In this document: piece by piece, positions 1 through 8,803 of the stretch
Position numbering within the stretch: the first letter of the stretch is position 1
Layout: every line of letters starts with the position of its first letter
Virus record (IMG/VR): IMGVR_UViG_2687453449_000001
Coordinates: 1 to 8,803 of that record
Reading direction: 5' to 3' (one strand)
Length of the DNA stretch: 8,803 nt
Origin: a virus
Taxonomy: Duplodnaviria > Heunggongvirae > Uroviricota > Caudoviricetes
Translations under genes and position numbers: made by a program
Notes under the pieces: model-generated
Database searches by the model: none
What the model was told of the DNA's origin: nothing
The model's input: the letters and a program-made list of their open reading frames with translations, nothing else

Positions 1-900
1 TTAACGCAACAGTGGACAATCTGGTGGTAATCGACAACGCAACGCTGCCGGAAGTATTTCAATATGAAAATTTTGCCCACTCAACGGTTCGCCATCAAGA
101 TTAAAGGTGATGTCGTGTGGTGCCTGAATATCAAACCACGACGAAGCGCCTTCGATAATATTCGGGTTATCTTCGTCAGATTTTAAGGTTGATACGAGAG
201 CCGGAAGTATTTCATCGCCGGTAAAAATGCGCAGTTGCAGCAAGCCATCGTTAATTAACGCGTTCGGACACAATTGCTGACCGCCACCGGCCTGACGCCC
301 GTTACCAATACCAATGACCAGGGCGTCACCTTGCCAGTGAAAGTTTTCACCGCGGATTTCACAACGGTCCGGTTGCAGAGTATCCATGCGCATTAAGCCA
401 TGAATGATGTAAGAGACGCCACCCAGCGCGGCTTTTAATTTTTCCGGCGTTTCTGTGGTAATACGCGTCCCAAATCCGCCTGTCGCCATATTAATAAAAC
501 AGGTTTGTTTGTTGACCTGCGCCATATCTATCGCAATGGCGTTACCGGCAATTGCCAGTTTCAGCGCCTTATCCAGTGCCTCAGGAATCCCTACACTGGT
601 GGCAAAATCATTGGCGGTTCCTAATGGCAAAATTCCCAGCGCGGGTATGTCATCCCCCTCACACTGAATCAACGCCGTAGAAACTTCATTAATGGTGCCA
701 TCACCACCACCGGCAATCACCGTTGCGACGCCCAACTTCCGGGCCTCCTCTACATATCGTGCGGCATCGCCTTTCTCCCAGGTGACCCGCACATGGATCG
801 TCATTCCTTCCTCACGCAACAGCATAATTGCTTCGCGCAAGGGTAAATTGTCAGTACTTTTGCCATTAAGAATCAGTAAGCTGGCGGGAAATTCTGCCAT
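1..900 (-). CDS. yegS: Lipid kinase YegS (diacylglycerol-kinase-fold)
   Basis: Complete minus-strand ORF: ATG at 898-900, TAA at 1-3, 299 codons. Translation starts [15 protein letters not shown] and contains the GGDG motif; it matches my recollection of E. coli YegS (299 aa). The ORF-track entry 1..1068 is the same frame extended upstream of the real start. Confidence 0.92.
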
Positions 901-1304: not shown

Positions 1305-1622
1305 ATGAAAAAGATAGCTGCTATATCATTAATTAGTATTTTTATTATGTCTGGTTGTGCTGTGCATAATGATGAGACAAGTATCGGTAAATTTGGTCTT
1401 GCATATAAAAGTAATATTCAGCGTAAACTCGATAACCAATACTACACCGAAGCCGAAGCTTCTTTAGCCAGGGGTAGAATATCTGGTGCAGAAAATATAG
1501 TAAAAAATGATGCAACTCATTTCTGTGTTACTCAGGGCAAAAAAATGCAAATAGTTGAGCTGAAGACAGAAGGTGTAGGATTACATGGTGTCGCTCGTCT
1601 GACATTCAAATGTGGAGAGTGA
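1305..1622 (+). CDS. yegR: Small putative lipoprotein YegR
   Basis: ATG at 1305 preceded by GGAAGGTGAG (Shine-Dalgarno-like); TGA at 1620-1622; 105 codons. N-terminus MKKIAAISLISIFIMSGC has a signal peptide ending in a lipobox-like MSGC. Gene is strongly AT-rich (~36% GC). Length and position next to yegS match my memory of K-12 yegR. The ORF-track entry 1245..1622 is an upstream extension without a ribosome-binding site. Confidence 0.75.
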   Translation: MKKIAAISLISIFIMSGCAVHNDETSIGKFGLAYKSNIQRKLDNQYYTEAEASLARGRISGAENIVKNDATHFCVTQGKKMQIVELKTEGVGLHGVARLTFKCGE

Positions 1623-1781
1623 GAATATTTTTTGGTAAGCGTCAAATATGCGCGTTCTGGCTGTGCGTAGCCGGAACCTGTGGGAGCACGATGCCGATAA
1701 GTGAAAGGCATCGTGCTATGAAGGAGGATTCTATCGATGTGGTCAATGGAAGACGGTTACCAGAGATAGGGCTTATGCATA

Positions 1782-1808
1782 AAAAAATAAGCCCGTGTAA
1801 GGGAGATT
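1782..1808. repeat. attL core of P2-like prophage (identical to the 3' end of the cyaR sRNA terminator)
   Basis: AAAAAATAAGCCCGTGTAAGGGAGATT is seen at 1782-1808. Its reverse complement, AATCTCCCTTACACGGGCTTATTTTTT, is the 3' terminus of E. coli CyaR (RyeE) as I recall it, which is the known P2 attachment core. Sequence to the right diverges from cyaR and leads into int (phage arm); sequence to the left is host flank. Confidence 0.75.
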
Positions 1809-1887
1809 TAGGGTGTCATCCGTAGGGGCTTTCAACGGTACAATGCGGGTTTGAGCGGCATAAATGACCACTGAAAGCCCTTAAACG

Positions 1888-2901
1888 TTACTCTACTGTG
1901 GACACTGTGTGGACACTCTCGGCCTCAGTACCACCTCTCAGCGGATTAAGAGAAATGGCGTCCTGAAGGTACTCTGGAGCAAAATGAGCGTAAACCATAG
2001 TTTGCTCAATCCGCGTGTGACCTAGTATCCGTTGTAGCGTGATAATACTTCCTCCATTAATCATGAAATGAGTGGCAAAGCTGTGCCTTAGTGCATGTGT
2101 GGCTTGCCCCATTGGCAAATCCGGTTTTATTGCTTTCATTGTTCGTCTGAAGCGAGGGTAATCAGCATCAGGGAATAAAAAACCTCGTTTGTTATCCGCG
2201 ATCATTTTGGCAACAGCCTCTGAGATCGGGACGGTGCGTGGTTTGTTTGTTTTCGTTTTAACAAACGTGACGCGGTTATGAATGATATTTTCTGCTTTCA
2301 AACGAGCTGCTTCTCCCCAACGTGCTCCAGTACTCAGGCAAAGAATCGCAATCTTTTTGTTGTCGCCGTCAAGAGCTGCGAGCAGTAAGGCAATTTCTTC
2401 CTGCGTGAGATAGCCTGTGTCTGGTTTTTCCTCCTTAAGCCTTTTTGTCCCTCTGATAGGGTGCTCACCAAAGTATAACTCCGCTTCAATCAGGGCTGTA
2501 AACATGCCGCTAATACATGTTAAATCACGATTGATACTCGAAGGTTTAATACCCTGACTTCTTCGGGTGGCGCAGTATTGGCTGATAAGCGATTTCGTAA
2601 TTTGAAATGCGCATGGGTCATTCGTTATTTTTGTGAAGATTTCAATTTTTCCAAGATTAGATTTCCCATGCTCTTCGTGTTTACCCTTTAAATCCCACCA
2701 GATCTGTGTCAGCTCCGACAGACGTCGCTTGTCTGTTGGTTTTGATAGCCATTCTTTATTGTGGTGGTTGTACAACGTGTATTTCTCGAAAGCGACAGCT
2801 TCGCTTTTCTTATCAAACTTCCTACGGATGCGTTTTCCATTACGTCCAGTAGGGCGGATGTCCACTTCATATCGACCATCATCGAGTTTTTTGATTGCCA
2901 T
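1888..2901 (-). CDS. int: P2-type tyrosine integrase
   Basis: 337-codon minus-strand ORF: ATG at 2899-2901, TAA at 1888-1890, GGAGG 8 nt upstream. Tyrosine-recombinase signatures are present: TGARWGE (Arg box), HALRHSFAT (HxxR) and LGHTRIEQTMVYAH (catalytic Tyr). Length equals P2 Int (337 aa, from memory). Confidence 0.93.
   Translation of the reverse strand: MAIKKLDDGRYEVDIRPTGRNGKRIRRKFDKKSEAVAFEKYTLYNHHNKEWLSKPTDKRRLSELTQIWWDLKGKHEEHGKSNLGKIEIFTKITNDPCAFQITKSLISQYCATRRSQGIKPSSINRDLTCISGMFTALIEAELYFGEHPIRGTKRLKEEKPDTGYLTQEEIALLLAALDGDNKKIAILCLSTGARWGEAARLKAENIIHNRVTFVKTKTNKPRTVPISEAVAKMIADNKRGFLFPDADYPRFRRTMKAIKPDLPMGQATHALRHSFATHFMINGGSIITLQRILGHTRIEQTMVYAHFAPEYLQDAISLNPLRGGTEAESVHTVSTVE
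1897..1916. repeat. Tandem direct repeats TGTGGACAC x2 (candidate integrase arm-type binding sites)
   Basis: TGTGGACAC at 1897-1905 and 1908-1916, 11-bp period, overlapping the last codons of int. From memory, P2 Int arm sites have the consensus TGTGGACA. Not verified by search. Confidence 0.5.
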
Positions 2902-2954
2902 CAGAAAACCCTCCGAGTGGTGTGTTTTTTTGCGACTACTAATCGTTTTTTTCG

Positions 2955-2977
2955 TGGTGGCTGAAATTTAGCCACCA
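2955..2977. other. Hairpin (8-bp stem TGGTGGCT/AGCCACCA, 7-nt loop) in the C-int intergenic region
   Basis: Perfect inverted repeat seen in sequence, preceded on the plus strand by two T7 runs (2924-2930, 2946-2952). It is not followed by a U-tract on either strand, so it is not a canonical intrinsic terminator. Confidence 0.3.
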
Positions 2978-3016
2978 ATAGTAGGCACTTGTGATGAATA
3001 TATTCACGATGAATTG

Positions 3017-3316
3017 TTAACCAGTCTTTTGACCGGAGTGGGGCGACGTTGTTTCGTTTTGCCCAAAGTGTGCGAGAGCGGGCGCAATTTGCCCGGACTC
3101 AGGAGCGATCTGATTTGTCATGAACCATAAAGTGTATTTGGTGAATTGTGGGGTCTGCAGGATGTTCATCATGACATCTGTTGGAGGTGTTGAACGACCA
3201 CTTTCATAGTAACTCAGCGTGCCATACGGAACCCCTGTTAAATCAGCAAGTTGTTGTCTGCTCAAATACTCTGATTTTCGCATTAAGACTATCTTCTCGC
3301 TTATCGTGTTTGACAT
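3017..3316 (-). CDS. C: Immunity repressor C (helix-turn-helix)
   Basis: 99-codon minus-strand ORF: ATG at 3314-3316, TAA at 3017-3019. Helix-turn-helix-like segment LSRQQLADLTGVPYGTLSYYESG. Same length and position as P2 C (99 aa), upstream of and co-oriented with int. Confidence 0.9.
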   Translation of the reverse strand: MSNTISEKIVLMRKSEYLSRQQLADLTGVPYGTLSYYESGRSTPPTDVMMNILQTPQFTKYTLWFMTNQIAPESGQIAPALAHFGQNETTSPHSGQKTG

Positions 3317-3407
3317 GGTGTTTAGATCTCAATAGTATTTAGTTTAGATGTAGATTGTTTAGTGCTTGGATGTGGGCACTAAAAGGCATTATAAGGCATT
3401 AAACGCA
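3310..3407. promoter_or_regulatory. Lysis-lysogeny switch: face-to-face Pe (rightward) and Pc (leftward) promoters with C operators and cox boxes
   Basis: Seen: TTGACA at 3310-3315, a 17-bp spacer, then TAGTAT at 3333-3338 on the plus strand (candidate Pe). The 8-bp direct repeat GTTTAGAT at 3320-3327 and 3342-3349 (22 bp centre to centre) flanks that -10, as described for P2 operators O1/O2. TATAAT on the minus strand (plus coordinates 3388-3393) is the candidate Pc -10, embedded in three tandem 9-bp repeats TAAAAGGCA, TATAAGGCA, TTAAACGCA (3380-3407) that fit the P2 cox-box consensus TTAAA(G/C)NCA. Promoter and operator identities are by analogy with P2. Confidence 0.6.
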
Positions 3408-3430
3408 ATTCATGAGGGCTGGAGGACGAC

Positions 3431-3706
3431 ATGAGCAAGCAAGTAACACTCATGACTGATGCGATTCCTTATCAGGAGTTCGCAAAACTAATAGGAAAAT
3501 CGACAGGAGCGGTTCGTCGGATGATCGATAAAGGAAAGCTGCCTGTAATTGATATGACCGATCCACAATCAGCTTCAGGTCGTGCAGGTGAATATTGGGT
3601 ATATCTTCCGGCATGGAATAACGGACTAAAACTGGCTTATGAAAGCCGCCCTAAAGAGATTCGTGACGGCTGGTTGATGTGGTTAGGTCTTGGTGAACCA
3701 CGTTAA
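3431..3706 (+). CDS. cox: Cox (excision directionality factor and Pc repressor)
   Basis: 91-codon ORF: ATG at 3431, GGAGG 5 nt upstream, TAA at 3704-3706. Same length and position as P2 Cox. Small basic protein with a helix-turn-helix-like segment. Confidence 0.9.
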   Translation: MSKQVTLMTDAIPYQEFAKLIGKSTGAVRRMIDKGKLPVIDMTDPQSASGRAGEYWVYLPAWNNGLKLAYESRPKEIRDGWLMWLGLGEPR

Positions 3707-3716
3707 GGAGAACCGT

Positions 3717-3887
3717 ATGAATGAGCCTCGTTGTATTGCTCAGTTATTGCGTAACGAAAGCCCCAGGGCGATTGACTTCACCATCACCCACGGTAAGGGG
3801 CGTAAGGGAATCATTATCCGCACCAAAAAACAGAGTCCGTTAAAAAAGGTTCTGACCTTTCTGAAAAGCCGGAGGGTATGGAAATGA
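3717..3887 (+). CDS. Small early protein of unknown function (P2 orf78 position)
   Basis: ATG at 3717 with AAGGAG 7 nt upstream; 56 codons; its TGA (3885-3887) overlaps the B start as ATGA. The ORF-track start at 3690 is a TTG with no ribosome-binding site. Confidence 0.6.
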   Translation: MNEPRCIAQLLRNESPRAIDFTITHGKGRKGIIIRTKKQSPLKKVLTFLKSRRVWK

Positions 3888-4384
3888 CAGTGATGACGCT
3901 CAATCTCGTTGAAAAACAGCCAACAACTATGCGCCGGATAATTGGTAAGCATCTGGCCGTCCCTCGCTGGCAGGAGACATGCGATTATTATAATCAGATG
4001 ATGGAACGCGAACGGTTAACGGTTTGCTTCCATGCGCAGTTAAAACAACGTCACGCAACGATGCGTTTTGAAGAAATGAACGACGTCGAACGTGAACGGC
4101 TGGTTTGTGCAATTGATGAATTGCGTGGGGCATTCTCAAAACGCCGTCAGGTTGGCGCAAGTGAGTATGCATATATTAGTTTTTTAACAGTCAGTCAGCG
4201 TCGCACTTTATTTATGCATGCCGGATTGACTGAAAAAGAATTTAACCAGCCATACTGGCGAATTAATGAGGAATCATGTTACTGGCGTGATGCTTTATTC
4301 CGTGCATTACGTGAATTATTCAGTCTGTTTGAGTATGCGCCGACAATTCTGACGTCGGTAAAACCAGAGCAATATCTGCATTAA
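3884..4384 (+). CDS. B: Replication protein B (DnaB-helicase-associated early protein)
   Basis: ATG at 3884 lies 8 nt after GGAGG (3871-3875) and gives 166 codons, the length I recall for P2 B. The ATG at 3878 is only 2 nt from the Shine-Dalgarno sequence, so it is disfavoured. TAA at 4382-4384. Confidence 0.8.
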   Translation: MTVMTLNLVEKQPTTMRRIIGKHLAVPRWQETCDYYNQMMERERLTVCFHAQLKQRHATMRFEEMNDVERERLVCAIDELRGAFSKRRQVGASEYAYISFLTVSQRRTLFMHAGLTEKEFNQPYWRINEESCYWRDALFRALRELFSLFEYAPTILTSVKPEQYLH

Positions 4385-4447
4385 GTAATTAACCAGAGTT
4401 TTTAACGCACTTAATCGTGCGGGGCTTCTTTTTGCCTGGAGAAAGTC

Positions 4448-4672
4448 ATGCATACAGTTTCTGAAAATCAGTTCGGTAAATACGCATTACTACTGCAACA
4501 GGCCAGAACCGAAGCACAGGCCGACGCTGCGACGCGCTTTTCTTCTCATCTTGACGCCATGATTCGCCACATCACAAAGGCGGAGTTATCCCGCGTGGAG
4601 ATAGTCGAGCTGCTCAGTCAGGAGTCGGAAAAATTTCACAACATCGGATTGTCTCGCGGGGAGGTGCTTTGA
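4448..4672 (+). CDS. Hypothetical early protein (P2 orf80 position)
   Basis: 74 codons; ATG at 4448 with GGAGA 5 nt upstream; its TGA overlaps the next start (TGATG). No recognisable motif. Confidence 0.65.
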
Positions 4673-4974
4673 TGTCCTGTTCTCGTTCAGTTGTTTTACT
4701 GAACAATGCCTTAAAAATCGTCGTTATGAAAAATGGCGATTTGTCTCTTATTCAACTTGGTCTTGATAAAGAAAAACGCGAAATAACTGAATCTGTTATC
4801 GCGATTTATCAGAGTGAATTAAACCTCCTGTCTGATGTGGTCAATTTACTTGTTAAACGCGCTGTATTTCACAAGCAAATTTCCTCCGTGGATGAACTGA
4901 CAAAATTAACGACAGAAATCGCCAGCTATTGCGCTGATGAATTTAAGAAACTGAACGACAAAAGGAGCTGGTAA
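4672..4974 (+). CDS. Hypothetical early protein, compositionally foreign (AT-rich)
   Basis: ATG at 4672 with GGAGG 8 nt upstream; 100 codons; TAA at 4972-4974 overlaps the next start (TAATG). GC is ~35-38% by hand count, against ~48-60% in the flanking phage genes. No recognisable motif. Confidence 0.65.
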   Translation: MSCSRSVVLLNNALKIVVMKNGDLSLIQLGLDKEKREITESVIAIYQSELNLLSDVVNLLVKRAVFHKQISSVDELTKLTTEIASYCADEFKKLNDKRSW

Positions 4975-5198
4975 TGCCGGACAACGTGGATTTTATTCAG
5001 GAACAACAGGCTGAATTACTGGAGCGCCAGATTAACGCGGCAAGGGTAAAACATTGCGGTGCTTCTGCGCTGGTTTGCGAAGAGTGTGACGCGCCAATAC
5101 CTGCTGCCCGTCGTGCGGCTTATCCGTCAGCCACGCGTTGTGTTTCCTGTCAGTCAGTCTTTGAAGCAAAAAACAAACATTACCGGAGAATGGCATGA
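4974..5198 (+). CDS. TraR/DksA-family C4 zinc-finger protein
   Basis: 74 codons; ATG at 4974 with AAGGAG 6 nt upstream. Two CxxC pairs (VCEEC ... RCVSC) about 17 residues apart, typical of the zf-DksA/TraR family carried by many phages. Confidence 0.75.
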   Translation: MPDNVDFIQEQQAELLERQINAARVKHCGASALVCEECDAPIPAARRAAYPSATRCVSCQSVFEAKNKHYRRMA

Positions 5199-5470
5199 GC
5201 ATTCGTATTGAAATTGGCGAACGTTATGTCGTTACCAGTGACAGTTTTCAGTTTATTCTCCACGAGAAAAAGAGAGCGGAAAGTGGTAAAAACGCCGGTC
5301 AGGAGTGGCTGGCGGTGGTTGGTTATTACCCGAAATTAAGCCAGCTCGTTTCCGGCCTGATGCATCACGATATTCTGACCGGAAGCGCAAAGTCTTTTGC
5401 TGATTTAAACGCGCAGGTTGAGCAACTCAGCAGGCGTTGTTCAGAGGCTTTTGGCTCACATGGCCGTTAA
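5195..5470 (+). CDS. Hypothetical early protein (P2 orf83 position)
   Basis: 91 codons; ATG at 5195 overlaps the previous stop (ATGA), GGAG 6 nt upstream; TAA at 5468-5470 lies 11 nt inside the A coding sequence. Confidence 0.65.
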   Translation: MSIRIEIGERYVVTSDSFQFILHEKKRAESGKNAGQEWLAVVGYYPKLSQLVSGLMHHDILTGSAKSFADLNAQVEQLSRRCSEAFGSHGR

Positions 5471-7694
5471 AGCCTCCGGGCGTTTTGTCCCTCCGTCAGC
5501 ATTTGCCGCAGGCACCGGTAAGACGTTTACCGGTGCTTATGCATGGAACGCGCCACGCGAGGCTGTCGGGCGCGAAAGACCCCTTACACGTGACGAGATG
5601 CGTCAGGTGCAAGGTGTTTTATCCACGATTAACCGCCTGCCTTACTTTTTGCGCTCGCTGTTTACTTCACGCTATGACTACATCCGGCGCAATAAAAGCC
5701 CGGTGCACGGGTTTTATTTCCTCACATCCACTTTTCAGCGCCGTTTATGGCCGCGTATTGAGCGCGTGAATCAGCGCCATGAAATGAACACCGACGCGTC
5801 GTTGCTGTTTCTGGCAGAGCGTGACCATTATGCGCGTCTGCCGGGGATGAATGACAAGGAGCTGAAAAAGTTTGCTGCCCGTATCTCATCGCAGCTTTTC
5901 ATGATGTATGAGGAACTCTGCGATGCCTGGGTTGATGCACATGGCGAAAAAGAATTGCTGTTTACGGATGAGGCGCAGGCGCATCTGTATGGTCATGTTG
6001 CTGGCGCTGCACGTGCTTTCAATATTTCCCCGCTCTACTGGAAAAAATACCGTAAAGGACAGATGACCACGAGGCAGGCATATTCTGCCATTGCCCGCCT
6101 GTTTAACGATGAGTGGTGGACTCATCAGCTTAAAGGCCAGCGTATGCGCTGGCATGAGGCGTTACTGATTGCTGTCGGGGAGGTCAATAAAGACCGTTCT
6201 CCTTATGCCAGTAAACATGCCATTCGTGATGTGCGTGCACGCCGCCAGGCAAATCTGGAATTTCTTAAATCGTGTGACCTTGAAAACAGGGAAACCGGCG
6301 AGCGCATCGACCTTATCAGTAAGGTGATGGGCAGTATTTCTAATCCTGAAATTCGCCGGATGGAGCTGATGAACACCATTGCCGGTATTGAGCGTTACGC
6401 CGCCGCAGAGGGTGATGTGGGGATGTTTATCACGCTGACCGCGCCGTCAAAGTATCACCCGACACGTCAGGTCGGAAAAGGCGAAAGTAAAACCGTTCAG
6501 CTTAATCACGGCTGGAACGATGAGGCATTTAATCCAAAGGATGCGCAGCGTTATCTCTGCCGTATCTGGAGCCTGATGCGCACGGCATTCAAGGATAATG
6601 ATTTACAGGTCTACGGTTTGCGAGTCGTCGAGCCACACCACGACGGAACGCCGCACTGGCATATGATGCTTTTTTGTAATCCACGCCAGCGTAACCAGAT
6701 TATCGAAATCATACGTCGCTATGCGCTCAAAGAGGATGGCGACGAAAGAGGAGCCGCGCGAAACCGTTTTCAGGCAAAACATCTTAACCGGGGCGGTGCT
6801 GCGGGGTATATCGCGAAATACATCTCAAAAAACATCGATGGCTATGCACTGGATGGTCAGCTCGATAACGATACCGGCAGGCCGCTGAAAGATACTGCTG
6901 CGGCTGTTACCGCATGGGCGTCAACGTGGCGCATTCCGCAATTTAAAACGGTTGGTCTGCCGACAATGGGGGCTTACCGTGAACTACGCAAATTGCCTCG
7001 CGGCGTCAGCATTGCTGATGAGTTTGACGAGCGCGTCGAGGCTGCACGCGCCGCTGCAGACAGTGGTGATTTTGCGTTGTATATCAGCGCGCAGGGCGGG
7101 GCAAATGTCCCGCGCGATTGTCAGACTGTCAGGGTCGCCCGTAGCCCGTCGGATGACGTTAACGAGTACGAGGAAGAAGTCGAGAGAGTGGTCGGCATTT
7201 ACGCGCCGCATCTCGGCGCGCGTCATATTCATATCACCAGAACGACGGACTGGCGTATTGTGCCGAAAGTTCCGGTCGTTGAGCCTTTGACTTTAAAAAG
7301 CGGCATCGCCGCGCCTCGGAGTCCTGTCAATAACTGTGGAAAGCTCACCGGTGGTGATACTTCGTCACCGGCTCCCACGCCTTCTGAACACGCCGCAGCA
7401 GTGCTTAATCTGGTAGATGACGGTGTTATCGAATGGAATGACCAGGAGGTCGTGAGGGCGCTCAGAGGTGCATTAAAACACGGTCTGAGAAGACCAAACC
7501 GTCAGCAAAGAAACGGAAGCCCGTTAAAACCGCATGAAATAGCGCCATCGGCCAGACTGACTCGGTCGGAACGAATGCAAATTACCCGTATCCGCGTTGA
7601 CCTTGCTCAGAACGGTATCAGGCCACAGCGATGGGAGCTTGAGGCGCTGGCGCGTGGCGCGACCGTAAATTATGACGGGAAAAAATTCGCTTAA
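5460..7694 (+). CDS. A: Rolling-circle replication initiator A (HUH endonuclease)
   Basis: 744 codons from ATG 5460 to TAA 7692-7694. HUH motif PHWHMML at codons 398-404. Paired tyrosines in GYIAKYISK fall at codons 450 and 454 counting from this ATG, the same positions I recall for the P2 A catalytic tyrosines, which supports this start over the TTG at 5418 used by the ORF track. Confidence 0.9.
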   Translation: MAVKASGRFVPPSAFAAGTGKTFTGAYAWNAPREAVGRERPLTRDEMRQVQGVLSTINRLPYFLRSLFTSRYDYIRRNKSPVHGFYFLTSTFQRRLWPRIERVNQRHEMNTDASLLFLAERDHYARLPGMNDKELKKFAARISSQLFMMYEELCDAWVDAHGEKELLFTDEAQAHLYGHVAGAARAFNISPLYWKKYRKGQMTTRQAYSAIARLFNDEWWTHQLKGQRMRWHEALLIAVGEVNKDRSPYASKHAIRDVRARRQANLEFLKSCDLENRETGERIDLISKVMGSISNPEIRRMELMNTIAGIERYAAAEGDVGMFITLTAPSKYHPTRQVGKGESKTVQLNHGWNDEAFNPKDAQRYLCRIWSLMRTAFKDNDLQVYGLRVVEPHHDGTPHWHMMLFCNPRQRNQIIEIIRRYALKEDGDERGAARNRFQAKHLNRGGAAGYIAKYISKNIDGYALDGQLDNDTGRPLKDTAAAVTAWASTWRIPQFKTVGLPTMGAYRELRKLPRGVSIADEFDERVEAARAAADSGDFALYISAQGGANVPRDCQTVRVARSPSDDVNEYEEEVERVVGIYAPHLGARHIHITRTTDWRIVPKVPVVEPLTLKSGIAAPRSPVNNCGKLTGGDTSSPAPTPSEHAAAVLNLVDDGVIEWNDQEVVRALRGALKHGLRRPNRQQRNGSPLKPHEIAPSARLTRSERMQITRIRVDLAQNGIRPQRWELEALARGATVNYDGKKFA
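7311..7330 (+). other. Candidate ori / A-protein nick region inside the A coding sequence
   Basis: GCGCCTCGGAGTCCTGTCAA is seen at 7311-7330. From memory this matches the P2 origin nick region, which is known to lie within the 3' part of gene A. Recall-based; needs alignment to confirm. Confidence 0.4.
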
Positions 7695-7794
7695 CAACCG
7701 AATGCGCCCCCGCGCCAGGGCGGCACGCCGGTCAGTGAGGGTGAATCACCTGACACTGCACCGGCGTCCACCGCCCGACTTTTCAGAGGTAGTC

Positions 7795-8235
7795 ATGATG
7801 ACGCTGATTATTCCGCGAAAGGAGGCTCCTGTATCCGGTGAGGGTACGGTGGTCATCCCGCAACCGGCAGGCGACGAGCCGGTGATTAAAAACACGTTCT
7901 TTTTTCCCGATATCGACCCGAAGCGCGTCCGGGAACGTATGCGCCTTGAGCAGACCGTCGCCCCCGCCCGTCTGCGTGAGGCCATCAAGTCAGGCATGGC
8001 GGAGACGAATGCGGAGCTGTACGAGTACCGCGAACAGAAAATTGCCGCCGGTTTTACGCGTCTGGCGGACGTCCCGGCGGACGACATCGACGGTGAAAGC
8101 ATCAGGGTTTTTTACTACGAGCGCGCTGTGTGTGCGATGGCGACCGCGTCGCTTTATGAGCGTTATCGCGGCGTGGATGCCAGTGCGAAAACTGCTGTTT
8201 CTCAAAGCGGGGCAGGGGGTGACGGCCAGCGGTAA
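7795..8235 (+). pseudogene. L: Truncated head completion/stabilisation gene L fragment (L')
   Basis: ATG-ATG at 7795 with GAGG upstream. Translation MMTLIIPRKEAPVSGEGTVVIPQPAGDEPVIKNTFFFPDIDPKRVRERMRLEQTVAPARLREAIKSG... matches my recollection of P2-family gpL up to about ...YRGVDASAK (~8190). The last 14 codons (TAVSQSGAGGDGQR) are an out-of-frame read of D sequence. 146 codons against ~169 for intact L. Confidence 0.6.
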
Positions 8236-8803
8236 AAAAATCCCGCAGATTACCATCACCCGCAGCGACGGTGACCGTCATCATTTTGCGATTGCTGACC
8301 GTGGAGCCTATACCGGCGTAACGGCAAAGTGGTTACACACCAAAGACCCGAAACCACAAAAGCAGAAGGTAAAACTGAAACGCAAAAAGAAAGAAAAACA
8401 CCTGCGCGCACTGGAGCACCCGAAAGCAAAACCGGTCACGCAGAAGAAAGCGCCAAAAGTACCGGAAGCGCGCGAAGGTGAATACATGGCCGGTGAGGCT
8501 GACAACGTTTTTGCCCTGACTACGGTATATGCCACGAAAGCGCAGGCCATGCGCGCCGCTCAGGCGAAGTGGGATAAACTGCAACGGGGTGTGGCGGAGT
8601 TCTCCATCAGCCTGGCTACCGGTCGTGCAGATATTTACACGGAAACACCGGTTAAAGTGTCAGGCTTTAAGCGCGTCATAGACGAGCAGGACTGGACAAT
8701 CACTAAGGTGACACATTTTCTGAATAATAGCGGCTTCACGACGTCCTTGGAGCTTGAGGTCAGGCTTTCTGATGTGGAGTACGAAACAGAAGATGATGAG
8801 TGA
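8189..8803 (+). pseudogene. yegZ: C-terminal fragment of tail gene D (yegZ-like, D')
   Basis: Frame +2 reads LKAGQGVTASGKKIPQITITRSDGDRHHFAIADRGAYTGVTAKWLHTKDPKPQKQKVKLKRKKKEKHLRALEHPKAKP...RLSDVEYETEDDE with TGA at 8801-8803. This is the C-terminal ~200 residues of P2-family gpD as I recall it, and K-12 yegZ is annotated as such a fragment. There is no plausible start with a ribosome-binding site. The upstream 80 codons of ORF-track entry 7946..8803 are an out-of-frame read of L'. Confidence 0.8.

Follow-up and report, generated by a model that had tools for sequence, protein, structure and literature searches.

The 8,803-nt stretch analysed here (the window; IMG/VR record IMGVR_UViG_2687453449_000001) is 100% identical to CP013048.1, the chromosome of RS76, an avian pathogenic Escherichia coli (APEC) strain (O7:HNT, sequence type ST93), and corresponds to positions 4542-13344 of the RS76 locus, L003. 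It holds the left 7 kb of a P2-like element of 7,450 bp, measured from core to core, that occupies the attachment site between yegR and cyaR-yegQ. The RS76 element is very probably a defective prophage of P2 proper, with the P2 immunity type, which was acquired independently of the P2-like remnant found at the same site in K-12 and carries two internal deletions. Its independence follows from the lack of any junction common to the two elements, from flanks of BL21 type, from a divergence of 16 in 643 positions, and from the existence of a true relative of the K-12 remnant in strain L9.

BLAST comparison with MG1655 and with P2 (NC_001895) splits the window into five blocks. The first (1-1781) is chromosomal DNA with yegS and yegR, and the alignment to MG1655 runs over 1-1799 at 99.2% identity. 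The second (1782-1808) is the full 27-bp attachment (att) core of P2, and the third (1782-7688) is collinear with P2 24356-30262, from int to A, at 97.6% nucleotide identity. The fourth (7691-8190) matches P2 5897-6395, which takes in the M end, the M-L spacer and 396 nt from the start of L (97.8%), and the fifth (8184-8803) matches P2 23335-23954, the last 620 nt of D (95.5%). The right edge of the window coincides with the D stop codon; this is where the window was cut and marks no biological boundary. Past it, the RS76 contig carries on with ogr, another full core, which lies within the 3' end of cyaR, and yegQ. The element is bounded by two directly repeated 27-bp cores, one of them forming the cyaR 3' end. 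The deletion junctions were read directly in the sequence. The features at the left end and around the junctions are listed below in window coordinates, with the strand where there is one.

1782-1808: attL core, the complete 27-bp P2 att core AAAAAATAAGCCCGTGTAAGGGAGATT; 27/27 against the P2 attP core (24356-24382) and against the K-12 attR core at the cyaR 3' end.
1825-1922: Cox-binding region and Int P' arm of attL, mapped from P2 24399-24496; 1/74 mismatches in the Cox sites and 0/27 in the P' arm.
7688-7691: deletion junction 1, P2 30262 joined to P2 5897 with 2 nt of filler (GC).
7691-8190, plus strand: end of M (4 nt), M-L spacer and L', the initial 396 nt of the gene for head completion; 97.8% to P2 5897-6395.
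8184-8190: deletion junction 2, a GAAA microhomology at which L (P2 ~6395) meets D (P2 ~23335).
8184-8803, plus strand: D', what remains of tail gene D, namely 620 nt at its 3' end with the natural stop codon; only 8589-8803 has a K-12 counterpart (yegZ).

In K-12 the order is trhP(yegQ)-cyaR-ogrK-yegZ-yegR-yegS, as an earlier note on this DNA had correctly stated, and the remnant is annotated as "cryptic prophage PR-X". This P2-like remnant was reportedly described by Barreiro and Haggard-Ljungquist in the Journal of Bacteriology in 1992. PR-X, made up of the pseudogene yegZ and ogrK, measures 656 bp and keeps the last 215 bp of D. K-12 matches the window at 1-1799 and 8589-8803, two blocks that overlap by 5 bp in K-12, and its junction reads AAAAAATAAGCCCGTGTA followed directly by GCAGAGTTC. 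A GTGTA microhomology here links the initial 18 bp of the core to D, at about P2 23740. Beside yegR, K-12 therefore holds 18 of the 27 bp of the core (window 1782-1799); its complete core stands at the cyaR 3' end. The left junction of the K-12 lineage, an 18-bp core fused to phage DNA at GTGTA, is not present in the window, where the full core is followed by the int side of attP. The D' breakpoints of RS76 and K-12 lie ~405 bp apart, the two fragments have only the natural 3' end of D in common, and no deletion junction is common to both elements.

These results bear on several statements of the earlier note. It had taken the D fragment at the end of the window for the same one as in K-12, which the lengths contradict (620 bp versus 215 bp). 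It had placed attL and the whole int-C-cox-B-A region between yegR and D'; the full core and the genes from int to A are indeed there, but A is truncated, and the 500-bp M'/L' fragment at 7691-8190, between A and D', had been missed. Finally, it had reasoned that different D' breakpoints, together with absence of the att core beside K-12 yegR, would point to independent events. In the alignment to MG1655 the breakpoints differ, which favours independence, and part of the core is present beside yegR, which does not; because the core is present although the breakpoints differ, this comparison does not decide the question.

A remnant that is less decayed than PR-X was retrieved with a chimeric query made of the upstream part of the RS76 D and the K-12 remnant. 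In strain L9 (NZ_CP142044.1 1752683-1755187; L015 36684-39188) it measures 2,505 bp and begins, after yegR, with the same 18 bp of core as in K-12, followed by pieces of I (273 bp) and T (509 bp), the U end, the whole of D, ogr and attR. Such L9-type remnants are found in eight of 5,426 complete genomes (L9, DSM 103246, HL15, SF10, TUM12357, A134_1EC, EC-07 and EC06), seven of which have a recorded source (poultry, fish meat, human). The left flank of L9 is identical to that of K-12 over 2,359 bp (100%) and almost so over 34 kb (99.97%); the right part shows 2 mismatches in 3,456 bp, with the private alleles of K-12 included, and a single difference within D'-ogr-attR. Both L9 and K-12 break after core nucleotide 18, and in silico removal of 1,849 bp from L9, between the GTGTA at its junction and a GTGTA in D, yields K-12 with 2 mismatches in 5,810 bp. 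Judged from these alignments, the L9-type remnant is the real less-decayed relative of K-12, and the most parsimonious history of K-12 would lead from an intact prophage to an L9-like remnant by three deletions and on to PR-X by a fourth. The breaks after core nucleotide 18 at GTGTA could stem from aberrant Int-mediated recombination with pseudo-att sites within the prophage rather than from plain microhomology deletion, the pseudo-site considered in D being GGGGTGTAGCAG.

RS76 stands apart from this lineage. Its D'-ogr region differs from that of the K-12/L9 lineage at 32 of 1,048 shared positions. I', T', U' and the 5' part of D, all present in L9, are gone from RS76, whereas L9 lacks the int-A region that RS76 keeps. 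The two retain complementary parts, and RS76 is therefore not on the K-12 path; having lost segments that L9 retains, an RS76-like state cannot belong to a path leading through the L9 state.

The chromosomal flanks were compared in a three-way alignment of RS76, BL21 (empty site) and K-12 covering 2.3 kb on the left and 7.1 kb on the right. RS76 agrees with BL21 at 44/44 variable sites in these 9.4 kb, K-12 being the odd one at all 44, and 40 of the 44 fall between -1,394 and +1,903 bp relative to the att site. Since RS76 matches BL21 at every variable site, its locus reads as a BL21-type empty site with a clean insertion.

The differences of K-12 and L9 from RS76 and BL21 (~1.2%) are confined to ~1.4 kb on the left side of the att site and ~1.9 kb on its right side. 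In comparisons with L003, L004 and L005, the divergent tracts of K-12 span ~5270-7000 and 8400-9200 of the MG1655 locus (L001); the right-hand tract matches the haplotype of UTAK-5, O113 FWSEC0010 and DETEC-S565 and then switches back. By its sequence, the pattern is a recombination mosaic centred on the attachment site. An imported patch was considered as the source of the divergent K-12 flank and rejected, as the left part continues a K-12-clade haplotype common to L9 over 34 kb.

The prophage DNA itself was placed in a panel of ten sequences, among them P2 and seven E. coli prophages that occupy this site. Over D'-ogr-attR, RS76 and K-12 differ at 16/643 positions (9/215 within D'), as much as unrelated prophages do: among the seven panel prophages the differences range from 6 to 25, apart from the identical pair UTAK-5/DETEC-S565. 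The nearest panel relative of RS76 is strain 720632, at 6 differences, and that of K-12 is 15 differences away. K-12 has eight private alleles in this region within the ten-sequence panel, and RS76 carries none of these. Thirteen sites in the 643 bp are common to RS76 and K-12 and differ from P2; they were rejected as evidence of kinship, being majority alleles among the panel prophages. The view of the earlier note that RS76 preserves a less decayed, intermediate stage of the K-12 prophage is thus contradicted by the junctions, the flanks, the sequence and L9. The alternative it offered, independent lysogenisation at the same site, is the one supported by the flanks, the divergence of the prophages and the L9 relative.

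No intact progenitor of the RS76 element was identified among the candidates considered. Intact D genes with 99.8% identity to RS76 D' occur in UTAK-5, DETEC-S565 and Z1322HEC0005, and in the first two D belongs to a prophage at the same site. UTAK-5 (NZ_CP157152.1) was rejected as progenitor, as its early region is only 96-98% identical. Strain 720632 is closest in D'-ogr (6/643), but its assembly is unusable, with a duplicated prophage across the record origin and many frameshifts. In this record (NZ_CP025842.1; L013, L014) P2-like late genes occur twice, on either side of the record start, with many frameshifted genes, which reflects either a tandem prophage or an assembly problem.

Lysogenisation at the cyaR/yegR site is frequent and recurrent. 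Among the 5,426 complete genomes, ~4,213 have a site that looks empty, 810 show a flank-core-int junction and 358 carry the K-12-type remnant; those of the latter that were sampled are all 100% identical and are mostly recognisable laboratory strains of K-12. E. coli BS-01 (NZ_CP172816.1; L006 3088-3540) has a K-12-like junction, CCCGTGTAG, after which D'-ogr-attR is full of 1-4-bp deletions (82% identity, 18 gap openings). Its left flank is of K-12 type and its right flank is 99.97% identical to RS76. Its appearance suggests an artefact of consensus or assembly, or else a mixed sample. With so many small deletions enclosed by perfect flanks, it was dropped as a third remnant type, treated as a probable consensus artefact and not counted as evidence.

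The two deletions account for what RS76 lacks. Deletion 1 (~9.2 kb in P2) took the 3' end of A, orf91, the cargo region that holds tin and old, cos, the genes Q, P, O and N and nearly all of M, and deletion 2 (~16.9 kb in P2) took X through the 5' 544 nt of D. P2 30263-5896 (30263-33593 and 1-5896) and 6396-23334 are absent, and the only late genes left are L' (396 nt), D' (620 nt) and ogr. The L' reading frame at 7795-8235 ends, in translation, in 14 out-of-frame residues; L' and D' are evidently treated as pseudogenes by PGAP. The RS76 element is a defective prophage and no viable phage.

The early region is far better preserved, and all ten of its open reading frames (ORFs) are open. Its features, preceded by the two chromosomal genes of the left flank, are as follows.

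1-900, minus strand: yegS (lipid kinase), chromosomal flank, at L003 4542-5441; Pfam DAGK_cat/YegS_C; used in the haplotype comparison.
1305-1622, plus strand: yegR, chromosomal gene at the border of the attachment site, a listed ORF; aligned to K-12 b2085; Pfam YegR.
1888-2901, minus strand: int, tyrosine integrase of P2, an intact gene for 337 aa that is free of internal stops and differs from P2 Int at 2 aa; Pfam Int_N and Phage_integrase.
3017-3316, minus strand: C, immunity repressor of P2, an intact gene whose 99-aa product is 100% identical to P2 C; Pfam HTH_3.
3310-3413: Pe/Pc switch with operators O1 and O2; 0 mismatches in the annotated P2 hexamers and both operators.
3431-3706, plus strand: cox, intact, 91 aa; 100% aa identity to P2 Cox; Pfam Phage_Cox.
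3717-4384, plus strand: orf78 (3717-3887) and replication gene B (3884-4384), intact; 1 and 4 aa differences from P2; Pfam Phage_RepB.
4448-5470, plus strand: orf80, orf81, orf82 (TraR/DksA zinc finger) and orf83, intact; 1-4 aa differences each from P2 and no stops; Pfam DUF2732, DUF5405 and zf-dskA_traR.
5460-7694, plus strand: A', replication endonuclease, 744 aa versus 761 in P2; the C-terminal 18 residues are replaced by one Ala; Pfam Phage_GPA.

Pe and Pc are convergent, as in the immunity region of P2. The reading frame of A is broken off 57 nt ahead of the P2 A stop codon, and the nick region of the replication origin (ori), at ~7303-7333 inside A', has 0/31 mismatches to P2. The replication module consists of an intact B, an unchanged ori and an A without its last 18 residues. 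Among ~15 billion proteins, the exact A' protein is found on a single contig. A 71-aa ORF called in the GenBank record (window 1610-1825) extends from the yegR end through the attL core and on into phage DNA; Pfam gives no match for it, and it is probably a spurious call created by the prophage insertion.

At the far end of the element, the attR core (L003 13746-13772) also matches at 27/27 and overlaps the small RNA gene cyaR (L003 13749-13834; Rfam, 100.7 bits). The locus contains exactly two complete cores, and no third or partial core was found in it. On the P-arm side of the attR core, the region of the IHF site (L003 13714-13747) reads TCATTGTATTACGCG in RS76 and TCAATTTATTGTACG in P2, a difference at 5/34 positions. 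The RS76 allele is the commoner one among the panel prophages at this site, and that of P2 itself is rarer (K-12 and six other loci were also compared).

The element originated by standard Int-mediated insertion into an empty BL21-type site (27-bp core, cyaR 3' end, between yegR and yegQ), which left complete cores at both ends. Two later internal deletions then removed cos, the cargo regions and all genes for packaging, head, lysis and tail, so that int, C, cox, B, orf78-83, an A gene that is slightly shortened and holds ori, L' and D' remain, followed by ogr and attR. With its intact sequence, C expressed from Pc would repress Pe and confer P2 immunity, and the occupied site (locI, the preferred attachment site of P2) would together with the resident homology divert an incoming P2. 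Given Int, Cox and two intact att sites, excision may still be possible, whereas the loss of cos and of the structural genes would preclude both particle formation and packaging by a helper. PR-X descends from a different P2-like lysogen, whose less-decayed form survives in L9 and seven further genomes.

Some points weigh against this account. Structure by itself would also be compatible with descent, the K-12 remnant being a strict subset of the RS76 element; it is, however, equally a nested subset of any intact prophage at the site, and descent is excluded on sequence and haplotype. An empty site in BL21 is no proof that its lineage was never lysogenised, as precise excision by Int and Cox restores the empty site; because BL21 could have been emptied in this way, the haplotype argument is no separate line of its own but draws support from the sequence and from L9. 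The L'-D' junction is absent from all complete genomes searched, and a 30-mer spanning it has no match in GTDB representative genomes or in JGI metagenome contigs. Both deletion junctions are known from one short-read assembly in which two gaps are left.

This last point raises the possibility that the internal deletions are assembly artefacts and that RS76 really has an intact or differently arranged P2 prophage at locI, segments common to another P2-like prophage having been dropped when short-read contigs were scaffolded or joined. The genome was indeed assembled with SPAdes from Illumina paired-end and mate-pair reads, ordered against BL21(DE3) and closed by PCR except for the two gaps; this assembly is the only one with the junctions and the truncated A', and exact look-ups of the L'-fusion ORF, with two alternative starts, returned no record. 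However, both joins keep the order and orientation of the prophage, one of them has a 4-bp microhomology of the kind typical of real illegitimate deletions, and neither contains Ns or duplications of k-mer length, for which reasons they look like genuine illegitimate deletions. Chimeras arising in a De Bruijn graph would, from the way such assemblers work, need overlaps of tens of bases, and the K-12-type and L9-type deletion remnants indicate that such decay is common at this site. An artefact is therefore improbable.

Comparably unlikely is a functional reading of the same structure, in which the RS76 element is a maintained mini-P2, a non-packageable island kept for P2 immunity and for blocking of the site, excisable and perhaps replicating as a circle. 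The intact att sites, int, cox, C, B, ori and ogr are what such an element could build on.

Considerably less probable is a hybrid origin, in which an older right-end remnant (L'-D'-ogr-attR or D'-ogr-attR) already occupied locI when a P2 infection followed, the newcomer recombining with it or inserting beside it, so that two lysogenisation events would make up the mosaic. The identity to P2 is uneven between the blocks (early region 97.6%, L' 97.8%, D' 95.5%), and no single complete genome is close in all of them, the best match of the early region being 98.6% and that of D' reaching 99.8%. Uneven identity is nevertheless expected from a single phage, since P2-like phages are mosaic anyway. 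The two complete cores, unaccompanied by any further copy, and flanks identical to the empty-site haplotype also speak against a hybrid, which in any case would not rescue the link to K-12, given the differences in D'-ogr described above. The least credible alternative is that RS76 represents an intermediate stage of decay from which K-12 arose by one further deletion, from the attL core to D at ~23740: the common attachment site, the 18 bp of core beside K-12 yegR, the nesting of one element in the other, for which a single deletion formally suffices, and the 13 common sites are outweighed by the absence of a common derived junction, the uninformative nature of those sites, a divergence no smaller than between unrelated prophages with 720632 closer to RS76, the 44 flank differences, and the segments kept in L9.

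The element was also compared with known systems. RS76 and P2 have the same 27-bp core, a collinear int-A region, identical C and Cox proteins, identical Pe/Pc operators and ori, and ogr and attR downstream. In contrast to P2, RS76 lacks cos, tin, old, fun(Z) and all genes for packaging, capsid, lysis and tail, its A protein is shortened, and the IHF region of its attR differs. PR-X lies at the same yegR-cyaR site in the same orientation and likewise keeps the 3' end of D, ogr and attR, but it differs in its size, its 18-bp core, the absence of an early region, its flank haplotype and its sequence (16/643). The L9-type remnant resembles RS76 as a partly decayed P2-like prophage at this site with more retained than in K-12, yet it keeps I', T', U' and a full D, has lost int through A, and has the flanks, left breakpoint and private alleles of K-12. 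The intact UTAK-5 prophage has the same layout as RS76 (yegR-attL-int ... D-ogr-attR-yegQ) and a D' that is 99.8% identical; unlike RS76, it is complete at ~34 kb, has its own cargo genes, and is only 96-98% identical in the early region.

The cargo of the UTAK-5 prophage (L005 10735-14467 and 29186-31918) includes an AAA ATPase gene cluster in the tin/old position, with IS1 and a RES-family NAD+ phosphorylase in the fun(Z) position, and a relE/parD pair lies in the flank between yegQ and yegP. Further prophages of this site (FT130, 18AR0366) encode, just after A, an RNA-directed DNA polymerase, or a SIR2-family protein and an ATP-binding protein; these genes are probably defence cargo in the P2 hotspot.

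The RS76 element is an ordinary decaying prophage and no missing link; defective P2-like prophages are common at this site, the K-12 remnant has been known for decades, and the RS76 locus is unfit as a model for the origin of yegZ-ogrK. With the L9-type intermediate present in eight wild isolates, the last step in the decay of the K-12 prophage can be reconstructed to the base, as a 1,849-bp deletion between GTGTA repeats, which is a tidy but minor by-product. The site itself, with empty, intact, 7.45-kb, 2.5-kb and 0.66-kb states, offers a natural series for studies of the rate of prophage decay.

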